IMG/VR virus record: IMGVR_UViG_3300034782_000041 | Span: 1-10,406 of that record | Length of the DNA stretch: 10,406 bases | Direction: 5' to 3' (one strand) | DNA from: a virus | In this document: positions 1 through 10,406 of the stretch, one piece after another | Position numbering within the stretch: the first letter of the stretch is position 1 | How the letters are laid out: every line of letters starts with the position of its first letter | Notes under the pieces: generated by a model | Told to the model about the DNA's origin: nothing | Seen by the model: the letters and a program-made list of their open reading frames with translations, nothing else | Databases searched by the model: none | Translations under genes and position numbers: made by a program

Positions 1-12
1 CTATCGCCGACA

Positions 13-297
13 TCATCTCCGCTTTCGACGTACGACGATATCGCTGTCGCCCCACTCAGCGCGTCCCGGAAGGCGTCCCTCATCGTCGAGAAACGCAATC
101 GCTGCACGCGCAGCGTCGTCGTACGCTGCCGGTGAATCAACCGCGCGCGTTAGATGAGCGGGGGGGCCAACCCACATCACCTGGCAGTCACGCTCCGCTC
201 GGTTGGGTGCGATCCGACAAACAGTCGCTTTGTACTGATTGTCCCGATCGACGAACTTGATGTGGATGCTGAGGTTTCCTGACCAACGCCGGGCCAT
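13..297 (-). CDS. Hypothetical protein (94 aa), third gene of a 3-gene minus-strand operon
   Basis: ATG at 297 sits 6 nt downstream of a strong SD (GAGGAGGAGGAG, 304..315 on the minus strand). That SD directly follows the TAA stop (318..320) of the upstream small gene. The longer listed ORF 13..408 needs a TTG start with no SD. Stop is TGA at 13..15. Confidence 0.5.
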   Translation of the reverse strand: MARRWSGNLSIHIKFVDRDNQYKATVCRIAPNRAERDCQVMWVGPPAHLTRAVDSPAAYDDAARAAIAFLDDEGRLPGRAEWGDSDIVVRRKRR

Positions 298-317
298 ACG
301 CTGCTCCTCCTCCTCAG

Positions 318-476
318 TTAGCGCCGACGTCTGCGTCTGCGCGGTTTGGATCCTGACAAGTGCTCTGCCACGCAAGCACGGAACTTCCCTCCAGGGAGGC
401 CTTTGCAAGCTTTGGCGGCCTGCTTCATGTTGTTCTGTGCCTTCTTCTGAGCTGCGGACGATCGCCGTTTTGCCAT
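318..476 (-). CDS. Small highly basic protein (52 aa) with a C-terminal Arg7 tail
   Basis: ATG at 476 is preceded by GAAGGAAGG (SD) with a 9-nt spacer. The SD overlaps the TGA stop (493..495) of the upstream membrane-peptide gene. Sequence MAKRRSSAAQKKAQNN...KPRRRRRRR. Stop TAA at 318..320. Confidence 0.45.
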   Translation of the reverse strand: MAKRRSSAAQKKAQNNMKQAAKACKGLPGGKFRACVAEHLSGSKPRRRRRRR

Positions 477-492
477 GATGGTATACCTTCCT

Positions 493-702
493 TCAGTCAC
501 CAAAGATCGCGTCGGTCAGTTTCCAAACAAAGAGCGCGCCTACGATGAGAGCCGTTCCCACGCCGACGTAGTAAATGGTCTTGCTGACGTCCTTGACCGT
601 GTCTACGCCTGGAATGTCCGACCCGAGCCCACGATCAATGGCCGCCCGACGATACCAGTACGTGGTCGGTTCAGAGGCTCCTACCTGCACCGCAGTAAGC
701 AT
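493..702 (-). CDS. Small membrane protein (69 aa) with one C-terminal TM helix (TIYYVGVGTALIVGALFVWKL)
   Basis: ORF whose stop is coupled to the downstream gene's RBS. There is a clear hydrophobic helix. The SD upstream of ATG 702 is weak. Confidence 0.45.
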   Translation of the reverse strand: MLTAVQVGASEPTTYWYRRAAIDRGLGSDIPGVDTVKDVSKTIYYVGVGTALIVGALFVWKLTDAIFGD

Positions 703-727
703 ACTTGCAACCTATCATTGATTGAGA

Positions 728-1210
728 ATGGGGTCTACTGATAGGCTATTCGTACGCATGAGCTACGTCAAAGATCAACTGGCATTGGCGGCAGCCGAAG
801 GGGAGCCGAAACTTCCTACTTACCGAACTATCGCAGACGTTCTCGAAAAGAAGAACGGATCTGGTATTCGGTTAGCCGGATGGACAGTCGCGCGGACGTT
901 TCTCATCATGCCGGGAATGCTCGCGGTAGGCGTCTCACCTAAGAAGGCGTTTGTCGGATCTATCCTATCGTCCAGCCTGATCAGCATGCTCGCGTTGATT
1001 CGGATCTACAACGCAGGTTTCGCGGAAGATGCCGAACGTTGGGCACGCATGAAGCGCGCGCAGAAGCTCGAACGTTGGGAACGCCGTCAGGCGCCTGCGG
1101 CGTTGGGGAGTGGCTGGGAGAGGCGTCGGCAACGACAAGCAGGCCGCTACGAACAGCATCGCGCGCGGATTCAAGCTCGACACCTACGCAGGCGCCAACA
1201 ACAAAGGTAG
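728..1210 (+). CDS. Membrane protein (2-3 TM segments) with an extremely basic R/Q-rich C-terminal tail; start uncertain (TTG 722, ATG 728 or ATG 758)
   Basis: Hydrophobic segments (FLIMPGMLAVGV; FVGSILSSSLISMLALIRIY). TAG stop at 1208..1210 lies inside the SD of the next gene, indicating coupling. It is divergent from the 493..702 gene. Confidence 0.5.
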   Translation: MGSTDRLFVRMSYVKDQLALAAAEGEPKLPTYRTIADVLEKKNGSGIRLAGWTVARTFLIMPGMLAVGVSPKKAFVGSILSSSLISMLALIRIYNAGFAEDAERWARMKRAQKLERWERRQAPAALGSGWERRRQRQAGRYEQHRARIQARHLRRRQQQR

Positions 1211-1217
1211 GATTGCA

Positions 1218-1502
1218 ATGCCCCGAGGGTTCGGATCTCCACAGCAACTTCACACACGCAAAGCACGTAACGCGTTTCAGGACGCCAACGAGTTTCTGCA
1301 CCGCGCAGCGATGGCGATGATCAAAGGCGATTGCGTTACCGCATTCGACGAACTCAAGCTGGCGGAGAAGTCACGATCTGTCGCTCTCAGTCAGATGCTT
1401 GACTCGGACCTGTCAGCAGCGTCACGGCATCGTTTACAGCAAGGGCTTGACCGCTTTCTGAACGTCGAGAACCGTTTCGTCAAGCGGTGCCTCCGCAAAT
1501 AG
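1218..1502 (+). CDS. Hypothetical protein (94 aa)
   Basis: ATG 1218 is preceded by AAAGGTAGG (SD) with a 6-nt spacer. The listed ORF 1110..1502 shares this frame but would overlap the upstream gene by 100 nt. Stop TAG at 1500..1502. Confidence 0.5.
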   Translation: MPRGFGSPQQLHTRKARNAFQDANEFLHRAAMAMIKGDCVTAFDELKLAEKSRSVALSQMLDSDLSAASRHRLQQGLDRFLNVENRFVKRCLRK

Positions 1503-1506
1503 CACG

Positions 1507-2673
1507 CTAGCGCTGGGTTGGTGACGCAGCAGCGACGACACGTTGTTGTGCAAGCTCAACATACTCAGCGTTCATTTCAACACCTAGAAAGCTTAGCTCC
1601 TCGTATGCGCAAGCTACACCCGTCGTTCCTGAGCCTGTAAACGGGTCGAGCACGACCCCCCCTGGGGGTGTAACCAAACGCGCGAGCCATCGCATCAGCG
1701 CGACAGGTTTGACTGTCGGATGGTTGTTGCTTTGATCGCCGAGTCCAGCATCCCGTTCCTTCTTCGTTGCTTTGGCGCAATAGAAGAAACGTGACACGCC
1801 ACCAACTTGCGTGTCGAGCAGTGCCGCGGACTCTTCATCCAAGACCAGATTTGCCGGCCAGCGACCACCGTCTTTGCCGGCGATTTCAGATCGGTTTGCG
1901 CTTGTCCACCCCGACGCTGACGTTGTCGTCTTGCCGAGTCTACGGACCAATGTCTCGTCTGTAGTAATTCGGCAACCGTCGATGTTGAGTGCGCCTGTAT
2001 GATGCCGAAGAACGTTCTTGGCCACGGTGCCAATCAGAGGTTTACGTATCAATAGGATTGGCTCCCAAGCAGGCTTGAGCGAAGTTCCCCATCCCTCCCA
2101 TTCAGTAGCAGCGCTCGGTTGTTGCTTGGCGACGGCCTTCGCGACATCAAGTGACTTCGGAAAGCCTTGTCCGTAGATCCAGGCAAGGCAGTCTCTGAGT
2201 TCCCAACCTACATCCTCAAGCGCACACGCTAGTCGATGATACGTACGCGTGCCGCCGAACACTACACCGTACGCACCGGGTTTCACAACCCGTAGTACCT
2301 CACGTGCCCACTGTTCGTGCCACGCTTGCATTTGGTTCCAGCGATCATCTGCCTGAGAAAAATCTGGCTCCGCGCAAACGCACGGAGATCCGCCGTGAGA
2401 CAGGTGGCCACACTTGCGGCATCGCAGCTCGTTCCAGCCTCGATTCAACGGCCAGGGCGTTGTACGCTCACCGATACCAGGCTTTGAAGCGCGACCGGCC
2501 CCCGTCGTGTATTCGGGGGCCTTACCACCTAACCGATCCCAATCCTTACCCATGAACTCCAGCCCGTAGGGCGGATCAGTAACCAATGCATCGATGAAAG
2601 GTTGGTTGATCCTACGTAAGACCTCCACACAGTCTCCGTGGATCAGCCGCTGCAATGGCGAGGACATACCCAC
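1507..2673 (-). CDS. DNA methyltransferase, beta-class amino-MTase (N6-adenine or N4-cytosine; Pfam N6_N4_Mtase-like)
   Basis: N-terminal LIHGDCVEVLRRI (motif X-like). DPPY (motif IV) is encoded at 2566..2577. C-terminal VVLDPFTGSGTTGVA (motif I, FxGxG) is at ~1620..1660. The order IV-before-I is the beta-class permutation. Internal VVKPGAYGVVFGG and LLIRKP segments are typical of the family. A Cys cluster C-x2-C-x9-C-x-C (RCRKCGHLSHGGSPCVC) is encoded at ~2374..2421. Start is GTG 2673 or ATG 2667, directly after the stop of the upstream gene. Confidence 0.9.
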   Translation of the reverse strand: MGMSSPLQRLIHGDCVEVLRRINQPFIDALVTDPPYGLEFMGKDWDRLGGKAPEYTTGAGRASKPGIGERTTPWPLNRGWNELRCRKCGHLSHGGSPCVCAEPDFSQADDRWNQMQAWHEQWAREVLRVVKPGAYGVVFGGTRTYHRLACALEDVGWELRDCLAWIYGQGFPKSLDVAKAVAKQQPSAATEWEGWGTSLKPAWEPILLIRKPLIGTVAKNVLRHHTGALNIDGCRITTDETLVRRLGKTTTSASGWTSANRSEIAGKDGGRWPANLVLDEESAALLDTQVGGVSRFFYCAKATKKERDAGLGDQSNNHPTVKPVALMRWLARLVTPPGGVVLDPFTGSGTTGVACAYEELSFLGVEMNAEYVELAQQRVVAAASPTQR

Positions 2674-2958
2674 TCAGATCTGGCCGTTGTGCGTTTTAGC
2701 CCAAAACAGTCGTCTGCACCATGAAGATCTCCAGGCACGCAGCTCGTCGTAGGTGTCGCCCTCATCACTAACTTCTGGATACGGATCGTAACCTAGCTCA
2801 GGCCACTCTCGATCCCACTCATCTAACCGATCCACGAGATCCATGGCAAATAGGCGCAGAAGAGTCGCGTAATCTACCAATGCCTGGCGATCCTCCGCCT
2901 TACTACCTTTCTCAGCCAGCACACGCTCACACAGTGCATCAAATTCACGTGTCCGCAT
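2674..2958 (-). CDS. Small acidic hypothetical protein (94 aa), co-oriented with and immediately upstream of the methyltransferase
   Basis: ATG 2956..2958. TGA stop at 2674..2676 abuts the MTase start (overlapping or a 6-nt gap), implying co-translation. Acidic, Trp-rich sequence with no recognisable motif. Confidence 0.55.
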   Translation of the reverse strand: MRTREFDALCERVLAEKGSKAEDRQALVDYATLLRLFAMDLVDRLDEWDREWPELGYDPYPEVSDEGDTYDELRAWRSSWCRRLFWAKTHNGQI

Positions 2959-3051
2959 GGATTAGGACCCTACCACGCAGAGCTGACAACGCTGTTTGTC
3001 ACACCGTCATGGTACAACCCGCGCATCAACGACTACCAAAGGTGATACACC
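2959..3051. promoter_or_regulatory. Divergent intergenic region (93 bp) containing a near-palindrome TGACAAC-GCT-GTTTGTCA (2984..3001)
   Basis: It lies between the starts of divergent genes (2958 minus, 3052 plus). The inverted repeat is one base away from perfect. -35-like hexamers (CTGACA, TTGTCA) are present. This is an operator/promoter candidate. Confidence 0.4.
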
Positions 3052-3540
3052 ATGGCAACAGCAGTCAGACGAAGAACCCAAGGACAGCCACAGGCGCAGC
3101 CGCAGCCGCAGCCAGCCGCGAAACCAGAATCGACCGGCAAGAAAACGCGCAACGTGCTCACTTGGAAGGAACGTAACCTCAAGCAGGCAACCAGAGCCAT
3201 GCAGTGGCTTGAACGGCTTGACGACGAGCTGGCACGTAGCAGCGTAGAGACAACAGATCCCGGCAGCACGAAGGTCTACCTCCAGGGGATCATCGAGACG
3301 TTGATGTCCACCGCTGACGAGTGGAAACCGGCGCCGAAGACGCGTAGCGCACTCAACGTCGGCGACACAATCACGTTCAAGGATGACACCGCAGTGCAAA
3401 ACTACGGCTTCATCGAAGCGGTTCATGAACGGATAGAGGGTGCTGTCGTGGACAGCGTGTTCGACAAGAACACCGTCATCGTGATGCTGAACGACGGCGA
3501 GAAGACGCTCATTCAGAAGCGTCACCTCCAGCGGTTGTAG
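3052..3540 (+). CDS. Hypothetical protein (162 aa) with an N-terminal basic/PQ-repeat region (QPQAQPQPQP) and a C-terminal small beta-rich domain
   Basis: ATG 3052 is preceded by AAAGGTGAT (SD) with a 5-nt spacer. Protein composition is sensible. The antisense ORF 3007..3576 has R/S/L-rich spurious-looking composition. Confidence 0.6.
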   Translation: MATAVRRRTQGQPQAQPQPQPAAKPESTGKKTRNVLTWKERNLKQATRAMQWLERLDDELARSSVETTDPGSTKVYLQGIIETLMSTADEWKPAPKTRSALNVGDTITFKDDTAVQNYGFIEAVHERIEGAVVDSVFDKNTVIVMLNDGEKTLIQKRHLQRL

Positions 3541-3541
3541 T

Positions 3542-5971
3542 CTAGCTTTCTGGCTGCGGTCGCTCAACCTCCTCAACGTCGATCACGTTCGAGGGCTGTT
3601 GTACCTCGACCTCGACCTCGTCGGTGAGGATCTTCACGCAGTCTACACGATACGGATCAGGCGCTTCGGGAAGGATCACGTCCATGAACTCCGCGAAGCG
3701 TCCCTGCTTGAACAACTCCTCGAAGGCCTGGATCTCGATTCCGTTCGCGCTGACGTAGTTGACGCCCTTCAGGATAGCGTCGATGGCTGCGCTCGGGTCG
3801 AGACCTACGATGTTGCCTTCCTCATCGATCACGCCTTCCTCAGCTAGCTGCGCGATCATTTGAGGATCACCGTTCGCTTCCTGGAAGCGTTCCAGGTTTT
3901 CGAGGAACGTCCGTACGCCAGTCCGTAGCCGCGTTACGGACTCCAAAGCTACGCCGAACCATTCCTCGTCGGTATGGCCTGCACGACGCATTGGGATGAC
4001 CTTCGCAGCCACCGTCTGGCCCGTTTTTGGGTCAGTCACGCCCTCGTCCATGTCGATAGGCGGTTTGGGTGCCGCAGGCTTTCCAGGCCGAGGTCGCGCA
4101 GTCGTTGGTGGCGGCGGCTCAGCACCGCTAAGCCCAGCTGTAGCCGCCGCACCGGGTTGATCTGACTTTCCGTTGCCTTTTCGAGTGGGCCCGGTGTGGC
4201 CGCTGCGCGTAGTGAACTCGGCGTCCTTCTTCGCCTGTGCTTGTTGAGCCGCTGCGGCTGCCGCCGCGGCTTGTGCTTGCATCGCGGCTGCACGAACTTG
4301 CGCTTCGCCCTGCGCCTTCGCGGCAGCAATGCGTGCTTCACTTTGTGCTTGGGCTGCTTTCATTCCGATGTAGCGCTCAGCCATCTCGCCGGCACGGCTC
4401 AGTCCCTGCTCGATGATTCGAGCAGCAGGCGGTTCTGGCGCTCCACCGGTCAGCTGTGCAACCTGTTCGATGGCATTACGCATCGTCCCGAAGATGCCGC
4501 CGAATGTCTCGGTGACGTTCTTCAGCAACATGTCGGTGCCCGAGCTGGAATCGCGGATGATGCCGGCGAGGGCCTGCGGCGTCATCATCATCTGTGCCAT
4601 GCGGTCGCTTGACATCTGCTGCATGCGAGCAATCTCGCGCAGGTTCTCTGCCTGCATGCGCGCCTGTTCCTGCGAGAGCCGCGCATTCTCCTTCATGTAC
4701 TCGACCATCGCATCGGGACGGTTCGCAGTCGCTTCCTTGAGTGCGATCTGCATTCGACCCTCTTGTTCGCGCATCTGCTGTGCAAGCTGTTCTTGCTGTC
4801 GCTGCGACTCCCAGCGTTCCCGTTCGTGTTGCTGCTGAGCTTGCTGGATCCGCGCCTCCTCATGCGCTTTCTGGATCTCCAACTCCAGCGTGCGAAGTCG
4901 GGGATCGTCGGTCGGCTTCTCAGCAATCTTGCCGATCGCCTCTTGCATTACCCGAAATTGCTGCGCGAGCTGATCGCGTTCCCGTTCACGTTCTACGCGC
5001 TGGCGTTCTTCACGTGCGCGACGAACCTCCTCGTTCTCTTTGTCCTTGTTGCCTTCCCCAAGCCGCCGGATTTCGTCTCGCAGCGTCTGCATCTCGCTGG
5101 CATGCTGCTGCTGCGCGCGTTCGAGCGCAGCCTTGTGCTCGATTTCTCGTTGGGCCAGCTCGCGCTGCCTCAGCTCTTCATCTCGACGACGAATCTCCTC
5201 TTGGAAGCGCTGACGCTCTTGCTCACGCTCCTTCTGACGCTCGCGCTCTTCCCGCTCGCGCTCACGCCGCTCATAGTCCCGCTCCCAACGGCGCGACGAT
5301 GAGCCGTTGTTGTCGCCGAAGCCACGCAGCGATGTCGGGTGGTACGGCGCACCGTACGGCGTCCCATACGGCTGAGGGTACGGCGGAGGCCATGCGCCTG
5401 CCGTATTCCAGGGACCCGGTTGTGGCAGCTGAGGGGCCTGCTGAGGGGCCTGCTGTGGCGCTTGTGGGGCCTGCTGCGGTAGTTGGTAGTTCGGGTAGCC
5501 GAACGTTGATGCTGGTGGAGGCCAGTGGGAGTTGCTCATACCAAACGGAACTCCTTGTTGCGAGACCGGTTGCGCAACGGGTGCTTGCTGTGGATTCACG
5601 GGCACACCCGCCGGAAGTGCCTGCGGGCTGAGTTGAGCAGCTGTTGCTTGATTCGGTGGGACCTTCTCAGGATAGGTGCGTGGATCGTAGACGCTCTCCC
5701 ACTTCATTGTCTCGCCGTTGGCATCCGTAACCGAGAAGATGTAGTAGCCGCCACCTGACCACTCGGTGAGGAGCCAGTTTTCCAGCGAGAGCACGTCTTC
5801 GCGCGACCAGTTCGTTCCAGGAGGGGCTCCGTCGCCTTTGCCTGGAATCTCGATGCTCATTGAGGAGGAGCCGCGCTTTTTCTGGACCCGCACGCTGATA
5901 GGTTCTTGCATGCGTTGCAGCTTCGCCTGATCGAATTCGAGGGGAGTCTTGATCCTGGTTGGGGTTGCCAT
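3542..5971 (-). CDS. Large (809 aa) low-complexity multi-domain protein: N-terminal globular domain, P/Q-rich linker, long ER/K-rich charged single-alpha-helix/coiled-coil, poly-Ala helix, G/P linker, C-terminal globular domain with an acidic tail
   Basis: Uninterrupted 2.4-kb ORF. Domains read directly from the translation. The N-terminal domain is aa 1-100, including NWSREDVLSLENWLLTEWSGGGYYIF. QAPQ repeats and PYG repeats span aa 100-215. RERERE/EELRQRE runs span aa 226-460. AQAQAAAAAAAAQQAQA is at aa 540-585. The G/P-rich linker is aa 586-650. The C-terminal domain is aa 660-780. Plus-strand ORFs across this span have typical antisense A/R/P/S composition. The RBS upstream of ATG 5971 is weak. 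Confidence 0.75.
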   Translation of the reverse strand: MATPTRIKTPLEFDQAKLQRMQEPISVRVQKKRGSSSMSIEIPGKGDGAPPGTNWSREDVLSLENWLLTEWSGGGYYIFSVTDANGETMKWESVYDPRTYPEKVPPNQATAAQLSPQALPAGVPVNPQQAPVAQPVSQQGVPFGMSNSHWPPPASTFGYPNYQLPQQAPQAPQQAPQQAPQLPQPGPWNTAGAWPPPYPQPYGTPYGAPYHPTSLRGFGDNNGSSSRRWERDYERREREREERERQKEREQERQRFQEEIRRRDEELRQRELAQREIEHKAALERAQQQHASEMQTLRDEIRRLGEGNKDKENEEVRRAREERQRVERERERDQLAQQFRVMQEAIGKIAEKPTDDPRLRTLELEIQKAHEEARIQQAQQQHERERWESQRQQEQLAQQMREQEGRMQIALKEATANRPDAMVEYMKENARLSQEQARMQAENLREIARMQQMSSDRMAQMMMTPQALAGIIRDSSSGTDMLLKNVTETFGGIFGTMRNAIEQVAQLTGGAPEPPAARIIEQGLSRAGEMAERYIGMKAAQAQSEARIAAAKAQGEAQVRAAAMQAQAAAAAAAAQQAQAKKDAEFTTRSGHTGPTRKGNGKSDQPGAAATAGLSGAEPPPPTTARPRPGKPAAPKPPIDMDEGVTDPKTGQTVAAKVIPMRRAGHTDEEWFGVALESVTRLRTGVRTFLENLERFQEANGDPQMIAQLAEEGVIDEEGNIVGLDPSAAIDAILKGVNYVSANGIEIQAFEELFKQGRFAEFMDVILPEAPDPYRVDCVKILTDEVEVEVQQPSNVIDVEEVERPQPES
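5400..5480. repeat. In-frame tandem ~12-nt repeats (GAGGGGCCTGCT-like) encoding the QAPQ repeats of the 809-aa protein
   Basis: gaggggcctgctgaggggcctgctgtggcgcttgtggggcctgctg is seen directly. Coding low-complexity, on the minus-strand gene. Confidence 0.6.
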
Positions 5972-6096
5972 AGCGTGACGATACGCAGAGTCTTAGTTGT
6001 GTGCAAGAAATTCCCGAGATCGCGTCCGCGATCAAACGCCGAACGGCAACAAATTCGGTTGCTGGGGGTAACCCAGCGTGATACCGATAGTTAACT
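5972..6096. promoter_or_regulatory. Divergent intergenic region (125 bp) with several inverted repeats: GATCGCG-TC-CGCGATC (6018..6033), GCAAC-N7-GTTGC (6046..6062), and a perfect 12-bp palindrome ATAGTTAACTAT (6087..6098) overlapping the ATG of the downstream gene
   Basis: Seen directly in the sequence. It lies between the start of the 809-aa gene (minus) and the start of the 6097 operon (plus). A partial direct repeat AGCGTGA(C)GATAC occurs at 5972..5985 and 6075..6090. Confidence 0.45.
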
Positions 6097-6516
6097 ATGG
6101 CGATTGACAGAATGATTGTTCCGAAGGATCGCGTGTTTGAACGCGGACGTGGTTGTTACAACTGCCGACACTTCGAGAACGGTGAACTCGCGCGCAATCA
6201 TTGGCGTTCCCGTCGGCCGCAAGACGAGATAGCAATCCTCGAACGCACTGGGGGCATCGCCAACCTGGGCACAATCTCACCCAACGATCAACGCTTCCAG
6301 TCACTAAATGACATGGAAAAAGCAGTGATGATGGGGCAGGCCGGAATGTGCATGGTGGGGAAAGTCCAAACAGACTTTGTGCACTTCAAATACCTCTGCG
6401 ACGCCTGGACTGGAAAAGAAGGTGCGTCAGCGGCAACCGAAGGACATCCGCTAGATCCACTACCTGCTGAGCTGAAAGAGATCGCAGAAGCCCGCGCGAA
6501 AAAGCACGAAGACTGA
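6097..6516 (+). CDS. Hypothetical Cys-containing protein (139 aa; GCYNC...CMVGK...C), first gene of a coupled plus-strand operon
   Basis: ORF with sensible composition. Its stop TGA 6514..6516 is followed one base later by the next ATG. No strong SD; the start lies within the AT-rich palindrome. Confidence 0.55.
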   Translation: MAIDRMIVPKDRVFERGRGCYNCRHFENGELARNHWRSRRPQDEIAILERTGGIANLGTISPNDQRFQSLNDMEKAVMMGQAGMCMVGKVQTDFVHFKYLCDAWTGKEGASAATEGHPLDPLPAELKEIAEARAKKHED

Positions 6517-6517
6517 G

Positions 6518-7030
6518 ATGAGTGAGTACACACCCGAGTACGTATTGGCTTCTGCGCTAACGCCGATCCTTTACGGTTTGGTTGCGTCCTCACTCTACTA
6601 TCTCGGCTCCCGAGCCAAGATCACGGAATTTCTCTGGTCACACTATCCACCGGCCTTCGACCGATTCATGATGTGCGCAGCATGTACAGGCTTCTGGTGG
6701 GGTCTTGGCGCAGCATTTGTGATCGGTTGGTGGCACGAGTTGCCATTTTTGTTGTTACCGGGTCGTTACTGGATGACGCCGGTCGTAGTCGCGCTCACTT
6801 CCGTTGTACTCACACCAGTTTTCGGTGCATTACACCTACGTGCACTTGAATATACGAATGCGATGCCCTTGGAGGAGTCCGAATCAACCCCACCAGAGCA
6901 ACCCAAGACGGTCATTAGTCCGTCAGCAGTTCTTCCAGCTGCCGGCAACCATCTTGGACGCCTCGGCGAATCGACCCCACTAGATCAACCCGAGATGGTA
7001 TCGTCGGAACAAGAGGACACTGATGGGTAG
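6518..7030 (+). CDS. Integral membrane protein (170 aa, 3-4 Trp-rich TM helices, acidic Ser/Glu-rich C-terminal tail); possible holin-like protein
   Basis: Hydrophobic segments: VLASALTPILYGLVASSLYYLG, FMMCAACTGFWWGLGAAFVIGWW and WMTPVVVALTSVVLTPVFGAL. Its ATG is coupled to the upstream stop. It overlaps the next gene by 8 nt. Confidence 0.6.
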   Translation: MSEYTPEYVLASALTPILYGLVASSLYYLGSRAKITEFLWSHYPPAFDRFMMCAACTGFWWGLGAAFVIGWWHELPFLLLPGRYWMTPVVVALTSVVLTPVFGALHLRALEYTNAMPLEESESTPPEQPKTVISPSAVLPAAGNHLGRLGESTPLDQPEMVSSEQEDTDG

Positions 7031-7457
7031 ACCACCGAAAAACCCGGACGCGCCATGGTGGCGAACCATCCGTGAGTGCGAGATAAGCATGATCAAGTAT
7101 GCCTTCACACACGCCCGCTCGGTTCGGCAAGCTGCAAAGGGTCTTGGGATATCAAGTCCATACTTGATGAGTAAAGCGAAGCAGTACGGGTGCACGCTTC
7201 CAGGGAAACCAACAACCGAGTCGAGTGAAGGACAAGTGAGCGATCAGGCGCCAAAGAAAACAAGAACACGTAGGAAGACACGTCGCAAGACGCGACGCAA
7301 AACCAATACGCCAAGCGCTTCGATCGACAACGTCGTTCCAATTAGCCGTGTTGACGACGTCGATGGCGAAAACTTCGATGACGACGACTTTGACGGCGAT
7401 AACGACGACTTCGGTGACGACGACTTCGACGACAACACTCCCGATCATGCGTCATGA
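7023..7457 (+). CDS. Fis/NtrC-type helix-turn-helix (HTH_8-like) DNA-binding protein with a (RRKT)3 basic repeat and a poly-Asp/Phe acidic C-terminal tail
   Basis: aa 15-56, IRECEISMIKYAFTHARSVRQAAKGLGISSPYLMSKAKQYG, matches the Fis-family pattern (xxALxxxxGNxSxAAxxLGISRxTLYRKLKKYG). KKTRTRRKTRRKTRRKT is encoded at 7254..7301. DDVDGENFDDDDFDGDNDDFGDDDFDD is encoded at 7353..7433. ATG 7023 overlaps the upstream gene; the stop overlaps the next start (ATGA at 7454). Confidence 0.65.
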   Translation: MGRPPKNPDAPWWRTIRECEISMIKYAFTHARSVRQAAKGLGISSPYLMSKAKQYGCTLPGKPTTESSEGQVSDQAPKKTRTRRKTRRKTRRKTNTPSASIDNVVPISRVDDVDGENFDDDDFDGDNDDFGDDDFDDNTPDHAS

Positions 7458-7807
7458 ATACGTCTACGACTCTGCGTACACCAGCGGTGGGAGTCGTACC
7501 CCCAGGGGGCACCGTTACGGTGACAATCGAGAAAGTCATCACGGCACGAGAAGTTCCCATTGTGCTGACAGCACAACCGCAAACCCTCACGATTCGCGCA
7601 GTGTATCCACACAGCGTCGAAATTGCTAACCTGTCAGCCGCGCCAGTTCCCTACGTCCTACTCATCATCCCCAACGTAGCGCTCAAACTCGTTTCTGTGC
7701 CATGGACACGTGTAGCAGAAGCGCTCAGCTCGCCGGCAGGCCGTTCTGCAATCTTGGAAAAGCTTACACAGCTCTTCTTGGGTGCCGGTCGCCAGCTCGA
7801 CAAATAA
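7454..7807 (+). CDS. Hypothetical T/V-rich (beta-rich) protein (117 aa)
   Basis: ATGA start/stop overlap with the upstream gene. Stop TAA 7805..7807 is followed one base later by the next ATG. The alternative-frame ORF 7348..7629 is a low-complexity artefact. Confidence 0.5.
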   Translation: MNTSTTLRTPAVGVVPPGGTVTVTIEKVITAREVPIVLTAQPQTLTIRAVYPHSVEIANLSAAPVPYVLLIIPNVALKLVSVPWTRVAEALSSPAGRSAILEKLTQLFLGAGRQLDK

Positions 7808-7808
7808 C

Positions 7809-8000
7809 ATGCAAAGGTGCTGTTTCTGCAATAGGTGGTTCAAGTCGCGTCAGGCCGTTCGTGGACATCTTCGCACTTGTGAAGATTACAAGGCGTCGAA
7901 AGCTACCTATGTCTGTCCGGTATGCTCGACCTGCGTGTTGCAAGAAGATCTCCCTGTAGCATGCCCGACCTGCGCTACGATGTTACCTGTCGAACAGTGA
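7809..8000 (+). CDS. Small two-zinc-finger protein (63 aa): classical C2HC finger (C-x2-C-x3-F-x5-V-x2-H-x3-C) plus a CPxC...CPxC zinc ribbon; candidate transcription factor
   Basis: MQRCCFCNRWFKSRQAVRGHLRTC has canonical C2H2-type spacing. YVCPVCSTC...ACPTC is a Cys4 ribbon. ATG 7809 comes right after the upstream stop. The listed ORF start 7782 is a GTG inside the upstream gene with no SD. Confidence 0.55.
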   Translation: MQRCCFCNRWFKSRQAVRGHLRTCEDYKASKATYVCPVCSTCVLQEDLPVACPTCATMLPVEQ

Positions 8001-8070
8001 CTAGCCTTCTGTGAAGCAGTTTGCAATGTCAAAACAAAACCGGTGGAGAGACTGAAGGGTCACTTACTGC

Positions 8071-8907
8071 ATGACACCTAAACAAGTGCAGAAAGCTGCT
8101 GCGTTCAACGCCAGAGAGGCTAAGCAAGGCGACTACACGCAAAAGCATCAAGTACGGCTCATCGAGTTCTGGCAAGAGCATCACGGGCTGCTGGCCGACG
8201 GATGGTGCGGTGCGTTTACGCAAAAGTCGATTGATGGCAGTATTGCAGTAGACTGGAATCAAGACGTGCATGACATCTTGGCCAACGAGGACCAGTACGT
8301 TGACGGGTTGTGGCTTCCCTGGGATGGACCAGAGAAATCCCAGCCGAGAAACTACAAAGAGGCCATCGAGTTCTTTGGTAGGCCTGAGACACACAAAGGA
8401 TCGGATGTTCTCGACAGAGCTTGGTACAAAGCCAACATCGTTGAGTGTCACAAGAAGCTAGGCAATCAGCTTCCAGGTGTGCCAGAGCGGTGGTGGGTGA
8501 AAACGTACCGTCGATGCGAGCCCTACCTACGTGAAGGTCTACGCCGTGCTTCGCTTACATCTCCCTACCGCATTCAACGCTGTGGCGGATTCGTCTTTCG
8601 CCACATCCGCAACGACCCGGACAAAGACCTGTCCATGCACGCGTTCGGTGCTGCAATCGACTTCGATCCTGATTGGAACTACGCATACCAATACAAGCGC
8701 GGCGCCGACGTGCCCAAGGCCTGGTCACCTCAGTGGCTGAGAAAGTGGCCGAAGGGCATCGATGAAAAGTTCGTGCAAGCTATGGCTAGCTGCGGTTGGG
8801 CGTGGGGCTCGGACTGGGATGAGGACGGCCGCACTGACGACCATTTGTGGCAAGACCCGATGCACATGGAATGGATCGCCCGAGACGGCCGCAGTCGTAT
8901 GGTGTAG
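8071..8907 (+). CDS. Endolysin: N-terminal peptidoglycan-binding (PG_binding_1-like) domain plus C-terminal peptidase M15 (VanY / L-Ala-D-Glu peptidase-type zinc peptidase)
   Basis: aa 27-58 VRLIEFWQEHHGLLADGWCGAFTQKSI fits the PG_binding_1 pattern. SMHAFGAAIDFDPD (H190-x6-D197) and DPMHME (H265) form the M15 H-x6-D...H zinc triad. SD-like GAAGGG lies 12 nt upstream of ATG 8071. Confidence 0.85.
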   Translation: MTPKQVQKAAAFNAREAKQGDYTQKHQVRLIEFWQEHHGLLADGWCGAFTQKSIDGSIAVDWNQDVHDILANEDQYVDGLWLPWDGPEKSQPRNYKEAIEFFGRPETHKGSDVLDRAWYKANIVECHKKLGNQLPGVPERWWVKTYRRCEPYLREGLRRASLTSPYRIQRCGGFVFRHIRNDPDKDLSMHAFGAAIDFDPDWNYAYQYKRGADVPKAWSPQWLRKWPKGIDEKFVQAMASCGWAWGSDWDEDGRTDDHLWQDPMHMEWIARDGRSRMV

Positions 8908-8910
8908 TAC

Positions 8911-8937
8911 CTCTACTGTCACACCTATTTAGTAGAG
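8911..8937. promoter_or_regulatory. Inverted repeat CTCTACT-N13-AGTAGAG immediately downstream of the endolysin stop
   Basis: 7-bp arms with a 13-nt loop or spacer. No following T-run, so it is not a canonical intrinsic terminator. Possible operator or weak attenuator. Confidence 0.3.
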
Positions 8938-9016
8938 TCGCTGGATGCCGAAAAGGCCATCTAGCGACCGTGTTGTCCCTGTTCTACCAACGGCACCTAC
9001 CTGGAAGGGCGCAGGC

Positions 9017-9310
9017 ATGGTAGATGCCACCCCAGAAGCCGTGTTTCCCCGAGATCTGCGCATAACGGCCGAGCGCATCATCGATCTCTGCGACCCGATT
9101 TTCGCTGAGAACTCGACCATCGCCGAGGTAGACAAAGCCGTCGATGACATCATTGACGTACTAGCTGAGGCCGTCACACACGAAACCGAGGAGCTGCGTG
9201 ACGCGCTCTATGAGATGTTGCAGAGCCACCGCTACCGGTTTCCTCTCAACGGAAAGTGCCACTGCGCGGCGTGCAGACACGCAGCACTTTTGGTTGAGGG
9301 CGACAACTAG
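9017..9310 (+). CDS. Hypothetical acidic protein (97 aa; alternative start ATG 8945 gives 121 aa) with a C-terminal CHCAACRH motif
   Basis: ATG 9017 is preceded by GGAAGGG with a 7-nt spacer. ATG 8945 has no SD. Stop TAG 9308..9310 is followed 2 nt later by the next ATG. Confidence 0.5.
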   Translation: MVDATPEAVFPRDLRITAERIIDLCDPIFAENSTIAEVDKAVDDIIDVLAEAVTHETEELRDALYEMLQSHRYRFPLNGKCHCAACRHAALLVEGDN

Positions 9311-9312
9311 AG

Positions 9313-9879
9313 ATGTCACACCTTTTCAACATCGTTGAGAATACGATACGTCAAATGATCGTTCCGGTAGGGACACGCATCGAGGTCCCGTCACATGACG
9401 ACGACCCACAAGGGCATCAATGGATTCTCATGGGTATCGCGGTCGTACCGCACCCGAGCTACACGTCGCCGGGCACTGATCGCGACATGCGTACCTTCGG
9501 TGATGTATGCGTCTACTTCGACGACGAGCGAATCCTACACCGACTGAACGCGTATACGTTGATGGATCGTTATTGGGGTAGGTACAACTTGAGTCCCGAG
9601 CTACCCGATCTGACTGCAAAGCTAGAGATGATGCAGCACGCGGCACGGTCGGCACCTAGACTTCTCGACCTCGCACAGGCGATCGAAGCAGCCCGCGACG
9701 CACTAATCTACTACCAACAGGCGGTGACGCCCCTATTTGACAAACCCATCACTGTGCCTGCTGGGCGAACGTTTCGGGTCGTTCAACTGCCGTGCAAAGA
9801 CGATTCCCCTTTCCGTTACAGCAACATTGACGTGGAGCTATTCGTCATTGTCCGACGTCCAGTCAAGCAGCCGGATTGA
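9313..9879 (+). CDS. Hypothetical protein (188 aa)
   Basis: ORF coupled to the upstream stop. Globular-looking composition with no recognisable motif. Confidence 0.55.
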   Translation: MSHLFNIVENTIRQMIVPVGTRIEVPSHDDDPQGHQWILMGIAVVPHPSYTSPGTDRDMRTFGDVCVYFDDERILHRLNAYTLMDRYWGRYNLSPELPDLTAKLEMMQHAARSAPRLLDLAQAIEAARDALIYYQQAVTPLFDKPITVPAGRTFRVVQLPCKDDSPFRYSNIDVELFVIVRRPVKQPD

Positions 9880-9934
9880 CCGTCACGGACAGTTGATCAT
9901 CGCACTCACGCGCTTCTGCGGGTTGCAGAACACG

Positions 9935-10129
9935 ATGATCAGCCTTATAGCAAGTCAGCTGAAACAGCTCAGCAACACGGCACCGCCTGGCGTCGGCAAC
10001 GTCGCATTGGCGCTTGCGGCTGCACAGCGCGACTTGCTGGCATTGATCGCCGAGGAATACGAGGATCTTCCCGCGGAGGCGAAAGCAGCTGCTGTGGACA
10101 TACTAGGAGGAAAAGCGTGGCCGAGATAA
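9935..10129 (+). CDS. Small helical hypothetical protein (64 aa; start uncertain, possibly TTG 9893 or 9923)
   Basis: This frame runs through to TAA 10127..10129, which overlaps the next gene's start region. The upstream part of the listed ORF 9737..10129 overlaps gene 9313..9879 and is rejected. No clear SD. Confidence 0.35.
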   Translation: MISLIASQLKQLSNTAPPGVGNVALALAAAQRDLLALIAEEYEDLPAEAKAAAVDILGGKAWPR

Positions 10130-10406
10130 CGATGAGCCTACCCGAGTACCAAGAGTTGACCTCACAGCGGGATGACGCACGCCGCGAAGCGGCTGAGCTA
10201 CGCGACCAGCTCCGTAAGGCCGAGATGCGTGACCCCGAGGGCCGCATTCCTAATCTCGTGCTAGGCATGGAAGCGGCACTCTCGGTGATCAAGTTCGCCG
10301 TCGGGAACCTAGCCCCCGAGACGGTTCGTGGTTGGCCTTACCCAGACTTGCTCACTTTCGTGGACGCGCTTGAGAAGCTACCCGGCGTAGGTACCGAAAC
10401 CAAAGA
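10117..10406 (+). CDS. Hypothetical protein, 5' partial in window (at least 96 aa), GTG start
   Basis: AGGAGG (10105..10110) sits 6 nt upstream of GTG 10117. The frame stays open to the window end (…MSLPEYQELTSQRDDARREAAELRDQLRKAEMRDPEGR…). It overlaps the upstream gene's stop by 13 nt. It is absent from the ORF track because no stop falls within the window. Confidence 0.5.
   Translation, partial: MAEITMSLPEYQELTSQRDDARREAAELRDQLRKAEMRDPEGRIPNLVLGMEAALSVIKFAVGNLAPETVRGWPYPDLLTFVDALEKLPGVGTETK

Follow-up and report, generated by a model that had tools for sequence, protein, structure and literature searches.

What is the function of a DNA methyltransferase gene which stands in viral DNA with no recognised restriction endonuclease beside it, and does the small acidic protein encoded directly upstream belong to it? 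These questions are raised by positions 1507 to 2958 of a 10,406-nucleotide stretch of DNA (IMG/VR virus record IMGVR_UViG_3300034782_000041, positions 1 to 10,406), referred to as a whole as the window. Two genes are found there on the minus strand: an orphan beta-class DNA amino-methyltransferase of 388 aa (1507..2673) and, upstream of it, a moderately acidic protein of 94 aa (2674..2958). An initial annotation had regarded them either as a phage self-protection or anti-restriction methylase or as a two-component modification module. The analysis presented here indicates that a stand-alone phage methylase with an independent small neighbour gene is the likely explanation of the locus as a whole. 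Its carrier would be an uncultured phage or an element resembling one.

The methylase is a divergent member of the PF01555 family

Open reading frames (ORFs) of the window were scanned with Pfam, PHROG, PADLOC and NCBIfam, as were the larger ORFs of the flanking ~10 kb on each side, for which a 35-kb contig with 99.99% identity to the window was used. The methylase matched PF01555 (N6_N4_Mtase) with 117.2 bits against a cut-off of 26.7 (E 1.3e-33), the match spanning profile positions 1-220 of 221 and aa 27-376 of the protein. Its PHROG match was phrog_67 'DNA methyltransferase' (E 6.7e-69, covering only positions 125-343 of 743) and its best PADLOC model was the Type II MTase (MTase_II, 3.7e-43). 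Motif IV (DPPY, aa 33-36; 2566..2577, minus strand), the catalytic motif and target-base pocket, is followed by the subfamily signature GLEFMGKxWD and lies N-terminal to motif I (FTGSG, aa 345-349; 1627..1641, minus strand), the S-adenosylmethionine (SAM)-binding loop. This is the beta-class order. In an alignment of 67 close homologues, D33, P34, P35, Y36, L38, F40, M41, G42 and D46 are invariant, and the subfamily signature reads DPPYGLEFMGKxWD, ALNIDGCRI, GRWPAN, RFFYxAKA and HPTVKP...DPFxGSGTT; F345, G347 and G349 of motif I are invariant as well. A fused ParB or other domain was also considered. PF01555 is the sole Pfam domain in the protein, with 26 residues ahead of it, and a phage ParB-methyltransferase fusion was rejected on this ground.

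An AlphaFold2 (AF2) model of the methylase was built on the 67-homologue alignment and reached a mean predicted local distance difference test score (pLDDT) of 80.5 and a predicted template modelling score (pTM) of 0.80. It has a Rossmann-like methyltransferase fold. The best Foldseek matches were CcrM of Caulobacter (6pbd, E 6.6e-15) and M.BceJIV (8urk, E 1.5e-13), the template modelling score to the target being about 0.78 for the M.BceJIV entries 8urk and 9c3u. Motif order, PF01555 membership and fold thus all agree with the beta-class assignment made in the initial annotation. Both best matches in the PDB share fold and motif order with the methylase, are orphan enzymes like it, and are solved beta-class N6-adenine enzymes, but their identity to it is only 16-19%. 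The similarity to CcrM, M1.HpyAVI and M.BceJIV is strongest in the motif I region. Against the CcrM equivalog NF050803 of NCBIfam, the methylase scored 76.8 bits where the cut-off is 830, with a match limited to the motif I region, and the C-terminal domain of CcrM (~83 aa) is absent, as little follows the catalytic domain before the C-terminus at aa 388. Orthology to CcrM was rejected on both counts.

Relatives of the methylase are numerous. More than 8000 proteins were found below 1e-10, the best non-self relative being 51% identical, and 1214 GenBank phage records carry a relative, mostly actinobacteriophages at 43-50% identity. Bob3 gp58, RitaG gp62, MooMoo gp65 and LittleE gp151 of mycobacteriophages are 43-50% identical over 88-95% of the length and carry the same signature (DPPYGLEFMGKxWD, ALNIDxCR, GRWPxN, RFF..AKA and HPTVKP...FxGSG); like the methylase of the window, they have no paired restriction enzyme. 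With 388 aa against a typical 430-600, the window protein is among the shortest members, and an extra insert found after motif VIII in many relatives is not present in it. Its neighbourhood, unlike that of the cultured-phage relatives, consists almost wholly of ORFans. Judged by its sequence, the methylase is a divergent addition to the well-known and already catalogued orphan phage PF01555 methylases.

Annotation of RitaG (L010 1968-3873) and of many Cheoctovirus relatives divides the homologue into gp62, the N-terminal part, which ends before motif I, and gp64, the C-terminal part with motif I. Between the two lie about 140 nt with a tiny ORF. The gene may have been split, frameshifted or interrupted.

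The start of the methylase gene was placed at GTG 2673 or at ATG 2667, which is in frame and two codons further on. Public gene calls start later and give 274 aa (JGI) or 373 aa (Logan). Since the IHGDC...DPPY stretch aligns to CcrM and to gp57 of phage Doom from query residues 2-10, these later starts would remove a conserved N-terminus, and the start chosen in the initial annotation is preferred. The automatic calls at L001 10628-11452 and L003 1998-3119 lose the DPPY motif or the conserved N-terminus, and database entry P0001 is an N-terminally truncated annotation of the same protein.

A cysteine cluster in the enlarged loop after motif IV

Four cysteines, C85-x2-C88-x9-C98-x-C100 (CRKCGHLSHGGSPCVC; 2374..2421, minus strand), form a putative zinc knuckle at the place where the initial annotation had put it. 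The cluster lies within a 64-residue loop expansion between motif IV and helix B (aa 43-106; 2356..2547, minus strand). The pattern C-x2-C-x(9-18)-C-x-C is in register in 103 of the 120 best homologues and is therefore not a chance pattern. The spacer between the second and third cysteine is 9 residues long in 71 of 102 sequences and up to 18 in the others, and is rich in Arg and Lys in many relatives.

Distribution of the cluster was followed among phage and bacterial sequences. RitaG gp62, Bob3 gp58, MooMoo gp65 and LittleE gp151, which are annotated merely as 'DNA methylase', carry the module in the same place, while Doom gp57 and Wocket gp66 are without it. Among methylase copies of bacterial genomes, sampled at one genome per species, 6 of 54 have the cluster. 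Three of these six (L018, L029 and L080) were examined and all adjoin integrase or recombinase genes, and are therefore copies on integrated elements. On a rough neighbour-joining tree of 176 sequences, to be read qualitatively, presence and absence of the cluster require at least 37 Fitch changes. By this comparison of homologues, the Cys4 cluster is a module which is optional in a large subfamily of phage and prophage methylases, and its distribution there is patchy.

The initial annotation had called the cluster non-standard. The cluster is indeed not part of the Pfam PF01555 model, but it recurs in a large phage and prophage subfamily. The carriers, cultured mycobacteriophages and integrase-flanked chromosomal copies included, are all without the 94-aa protein. 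This agrees in spirit with the refuting condition set by the initial annotation, namely a cluster conserved in chromosomal CcrM- or Dam-like enzymes that have no partner, although CcrM and Dam themselves lack it.

The position of the insert was established by phmmer alignment to 6pbd, in which query residues 8-42 pair with chain residues 14-48 and query residues 107-172 with chain residues 60-131. From this pairing, query residues 43-106 replace ~11 residues at the tip of loop-2B of CcrM, so that the loop following DPPY has ~11 residues in CcrM and 64 residues with four cysteines in the methylase. Loop-2B of CcrM enters the major groove and parts the strands, and its R44 reads the target-strand G (PMC13092597). 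In the model of the methylase, aa 50-75 are disordered (pLDDT below 50), and aa 80-100, which include the four cysteines, have a pLDDT of 84-90 and form short beta elements. No solved beta-class structure aligned with the 64-residue insert in phmmer and Foldseek comparisons against the PDB. The literature searched yielded no description of a zinc module in beta-class phage methylases, which is absence of evidence only. The arrangement of the four conserved cysteines in two close pairs (CxxC...CxC) is that of a zinc-binding Cys4 knuckle or ribbon. The model and the analogy with CcrM suggest that the cluster is probably a small zinc-stabilised knuckle, and that this knuckle probably enlarges or stiffens the DNA-contacting surface of the loop. 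The cluster lies inside the enlarged counterpart of the DNA-reading loop which comes after the catalytic motif.

The 94-aa protein and its family

The TGA stop codon of the upstream ORF (2674-2676) directly abuts GTG 2673 of the methylase. The adjacency of a small acidic ORF reported in the initial annotation is therefore correct, the acidity being only moderate (isoelectric point (pI) 4.66, with 21 D/E and 14 K/R). The protein had no match in Pfam, PHROG, PADLOC or NCBIfam. A word-index search returned only the protein itself, and a full HMMER scan was needed. The exhaustive HMMER scan gave 16 relatives of 72-113 aa at 33-62% identity; with three more (P0138-P0141) obtained by a family profile search, 19 relatives are recognised in all. 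The protein was hence not retained as an ORFan. They share the motif DxWDxEWPxLGY, and F6, R35, D46, W48, D49 and Y57 are invariant in a 17-sequence alignment. By this similarity, the 94-aa protein is a member of a genuine, small and unnamed phage protein family.

Co-occurrence of the two genes was then compared from both sides. Six other genomic contexts of the 94-aa family were available (L096, L097-099, L100, L101-102, L103 and L104), with DNA recovered for 0.7 kb to about 8 kb on either side of the family member. In none of the six was a PF01555 gene found beside the family member or elsewhere in the recovered DNA. Conversely, the small ORFs directly upstream of four close methylase homologues had no BLAST similarity to the 94-aa protein, and their pI ranged from 4.6 to 9.8. 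In these phage gene arrays, neighbouring genes ordinarily abut or overlap by four bases. The two-component module proposed in the initial annotation thus fails this comparison in both directions, and the 94-aa gene is an independent accessory gene which is not supported as a dedicated partner of the methylase. It would be co-transcribed and probably translationally coupled with the methylase, yet would act neither as its subunit nor as its specificity factor.

Two other candidate functions were discarded. A C-protein-like transcriptional controller was rejected as the protein is acidic, has no helix-turn-helix (HTH) and matches no family. An Ocr/ArdA-type DNA mimic was rejected because a net charge of about -7 spread over 94 aa is too low a density; it is also disfavoured by the aromatic character of conserved residues and by the lack of a Pfam, PHROG or PADLOC match.

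The gene of the closest relative (62% identity, L096) is located 9 nt upstream of a gene (L096 449-676) for a 75-aa protein with an Acb2/Tad1 hairpin domain (E 8.9e-20), a position which suggests that the small family is at home in counter-defence gene clusters. Proteins of the Acb2/Tad1 family act as sponges against CBASS and Thoeris. A counter-defence-type gene thus follows directly downstream of the 94-aa family in two of seven contexts.

At L101 3887-4282 and L100 926-1324, a conserved acidic protein of ~131 aa is encoded just downstream of the 94-aa family member. It is 43% identical between these two unrelated contigs and has no Pfam match.

A weak resemblance of the 94-aa protein to DNase immunity proteins

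A different function for the 94-aa protein is raised by its similarity to colicin and pyocin DNase immunity (Im) proteins. It could be a distant relative of the Im9 type which inhibits an HNH-type nuclease, and the two genes would then form a two-pronged anti-nuclease operon. The best PDB matches of the family profile were Im9 and ImDes7, in two collinear segments. The profile was compared by hhalign with an alignment of Im9, Im7, Im2, Im8 and the pyocin S2 immunity protein (ImS2). The Im sequences used agree with the segments seen in PDB alignments and are only partly verified, which counts against the comparison. The two families aligned over 68 columns, nearly the full length of both, with a probability of 72.6%, P 3.2e-5 and a score of 31.7. 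The reversed alignment scored 11.2, 70 column shuffles 10.7 +/- 2.1 (max 16.8) and 70 block shuffles 13.8 +/- 2.8 (max 21.6). Invariant F6 and Y57 correspond to F15 and Y54 of Im9, ELGYDP to DLIYYP and W76 to W74. The families are comparable in length (about 85-95 aa), acidity and predicted helical content, and the weak similarity is collinear, including TxxEF, L-x-Y-x-P and a C-terminal W...(N/H)G. The location of the closest relative beside the Acb2/Tad1 gene is also consistent with such a role.

Several results stand against this relationship. The database-wide E-value was only 0.6-1.5, which is not significant, and the pairwise P-value is not independent, as the Im family had been picked as the top match. 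None of 17 family members matched Pfam PF01320 even at E up to 10. The single-sequence AF2 model was poor (pTM 0.42), and Foldseek returned only noise and no fold match. The second Tyr of the Y-Y-P hotspot in helix III is not conserved, only Y-x-P being kept, and unlike the Im proteins the 94-aa family has about 12 extra residues (DxxDxWDxEWP) before this segment. No cognate DNase toxin gene was found near the 94-aa gene in the window and its flanks of ~10 kb. The literature searched gave no description of Im-like phage proteins, which again is absence of evidence only. Taken together, a distant Im9-type relationship is a doubtful proposition, and the assignment of the 94-aa protein as a nuclease-inhibitor-like accessory protein is equally tentative.

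Probable role of the methylase and alternative explanations

With SAM bound by motif I (FTGSG) and the target base held in the DPPY pocket, the enzyme would transfer a methyl group to an exocyclic amino group at a short sequence. N6-adenine enzymes usually have DPPY, and not SPPY/F, as motif IV. Adenine N6 is probably the target because motif IV of the methylase is DPPY. The initial annotation held that N6-adenine and N4-cytosine specificities are inseparable from the sequence, in agreement with the report that N4mC and N6mA enzymes are not grouped apart by sequence (PMC7544214). The methylation would label the DNA of the phage itself and thereby spare it from cleavage by host restriction enzymes, and a protective role, in self-protection or anti-restriction, is probably the best reading of the methylase.

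Three other explanations were weighed against a stand-alone methylase with an independent neighbour. That the methylase is part of a restriction-modification or other defence system, with the nuclease encoded by an unannotated neighbouring ORFan, is highly improbable. Nearly all neighbours are without family assignment and the best PADLOC model is a Type II MTase, which leaves room for such a system. No nuclease, restriction enzyme or defence family was detected in the window or within ~10 kb on either side, no cognate endonuclease profile of the kind expected for a Type II system lies next to the methylase, the flanking genes are on the opposite strand, and the homologues of cultured phages reside in replication modules that have no restriction enzymes. 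The absence of an endonuclease-like gene noted initially thus extends beyond the window. It is very unlikely that the 94-aa protein is a binding partner which modulates or targets the methylase. The abutting stop and start codons, and the apparent unit which the two genes form between opposite-strand genes, would fit such a module; the six contexts and four homologues described above, the frequency of abutting genes in these arrays, and the occurrence of the methylase subfamily in thousands of genomes where it works without such a partner speak against it. The remaining explanation is that the methylase serves phage regulation, in replication, packaging or timing of expression, or is an N4-cytosine enzyme, which we regard as unlikely. 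The DPPY motif in place of SPPY/F disfavours the N4-cytosine variant, for which the inseparability of the two enzyme types by sequence can be cited. Regulation is disfavoured by the low score against the CcrM equivalog and the missing C-terminal domain. CcrM is one of the orphan beta-class enzymes with a regulatory function (PMC7544214) and the actinophage homologues of the methylase lie among replication genes, and the evidence gathered here does not discriminate regulation from protection.

Some points weigh against a stand-alone protective methylase with an independent neighbour. As nearly all neighbours are ORFans, an unrecognised nuclease may be present among them. The eight contigs that contain the locus are 99.97-100% identical and offer no within-lineage variation from which selection could be gauged. 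Activity, target base and recognition sequence are not derivable from sequence, and N4-cytosine is a possible target (PMC7544214). The 94-aa gene and the methylase form an apparent two-gene leftward unit between opposite-strand genes, and such an arrangement points to a functional link a little more than adjacency in a long array would. Zinc binding and DNA contact by the knuckle are drawn from the model and the CcrM analogy.

By itself, the methylase is of little weight, as few accessory genes of phages are commoner than orphan PF01555 methylases; it adds a divergent member from an uncultured lineage. Of modest value is the Cys4 module which sits in the predicted DNA-reading loop of a large share of the subfamily, yet is unannotated and present in no solved structure; one structural or mutational study of this module would inform thousands of sequences. 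The 94-aa family is a cheap candidate for anti-defence screens, given its counter-defence neighbours in two of seven contexts and the weak resemblance to Im proteins. It is quite unlikely that the two stronger claims hold, namely that the Cys4 cluster is a zinc-stabilised DNA-reading element in the loop-2B equivalent and that the 94-aa family is a diverged Im9-like inhibitor of HNH nucleases. If they did, the knuckle would define a large phage methylase clade with a mode of recognition that has no structural precedent among solved beta-class enzymes, and the two-gene unit would be a counter-defence operon which combines masking of the sites with a block of the nuclease.

Other features of the locus and its surroundings

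Methylase homologues of actinobacteriophages are very often flanked by a gene for an HNH endonuclease or endonuclease VII. Such neighbours are Doom gp58, Bob3 gp59, RitaG gp61, LittleE gp150, MooMoo gp66 and Wocket gp68, and the actinophage endonuclease neighbours were located at L009 2522-2989, L106 971-1480, L010 1615-1971, L105 859-1461, L108 3093-3449 and L107 3130-3540. The upstream slot is occupied in the window by the 94-aa protein with its weak resemblance to HNH-DNase immunity proteins, which may be a coincidence or a matter of gene order in replication modules.

The leftward pair is separated from a rightward gene (3052..3540) by an intergenic region of 93 nt (2959..3051), in which divergent promoters are presumed from the gene layout; a sigma-70 consensus scan of this region gave no promoter. 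Scans of 1000-3700 for promoters, terminators and inverted repeats gave nothing above shuffle expectation, and scans of the window for Rfam families, tRNAs and tandem repeats gave no relevant match. The whole window had no megablast match among GenBank phage records. Compared with six public contigs that extend beyond window positions 1499-3420, the window differs by one base in each, and from the pattern of contig overlaps this base is located between 3421 and 3796.

The neighbours identified by the scans are an M15-type peptidase (Peptidase_M15_4, endolysin-like), a weak HTH protein, a dual-specificity-phosphatase-like protein and a protein with a transglutaminase core. The endolysin-like and HTH genes, set among ORFans for the most part, speak for a phage context, as do the 1214 phage records with homologues. 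An 809-aa ORFan (3542-5971, minus strand) had no Pfam, PHROG, PADLOC or NCBIfam match. It contains a Pro/Gln-rich repeat region (QAPQQAPQQAP) followed by a long predicted coiled coil rich in Glu, Arg and Gln, and by a part rich in Ala; at 5428-5455 there is a short tandem repeat of 12 nt. The HTH match belongs to a 144-aa protein (7023-7457, plus strand), in which HTH_50 was found at the N-terminus with E 1.1e-4, below the cut-off. Further features of this protein are a basic RRKTRRKTRRKT repeat and a tail, DDDFDGDNDDFGDDDFDD, which is extremely acidic and rich in Asp and Phe.

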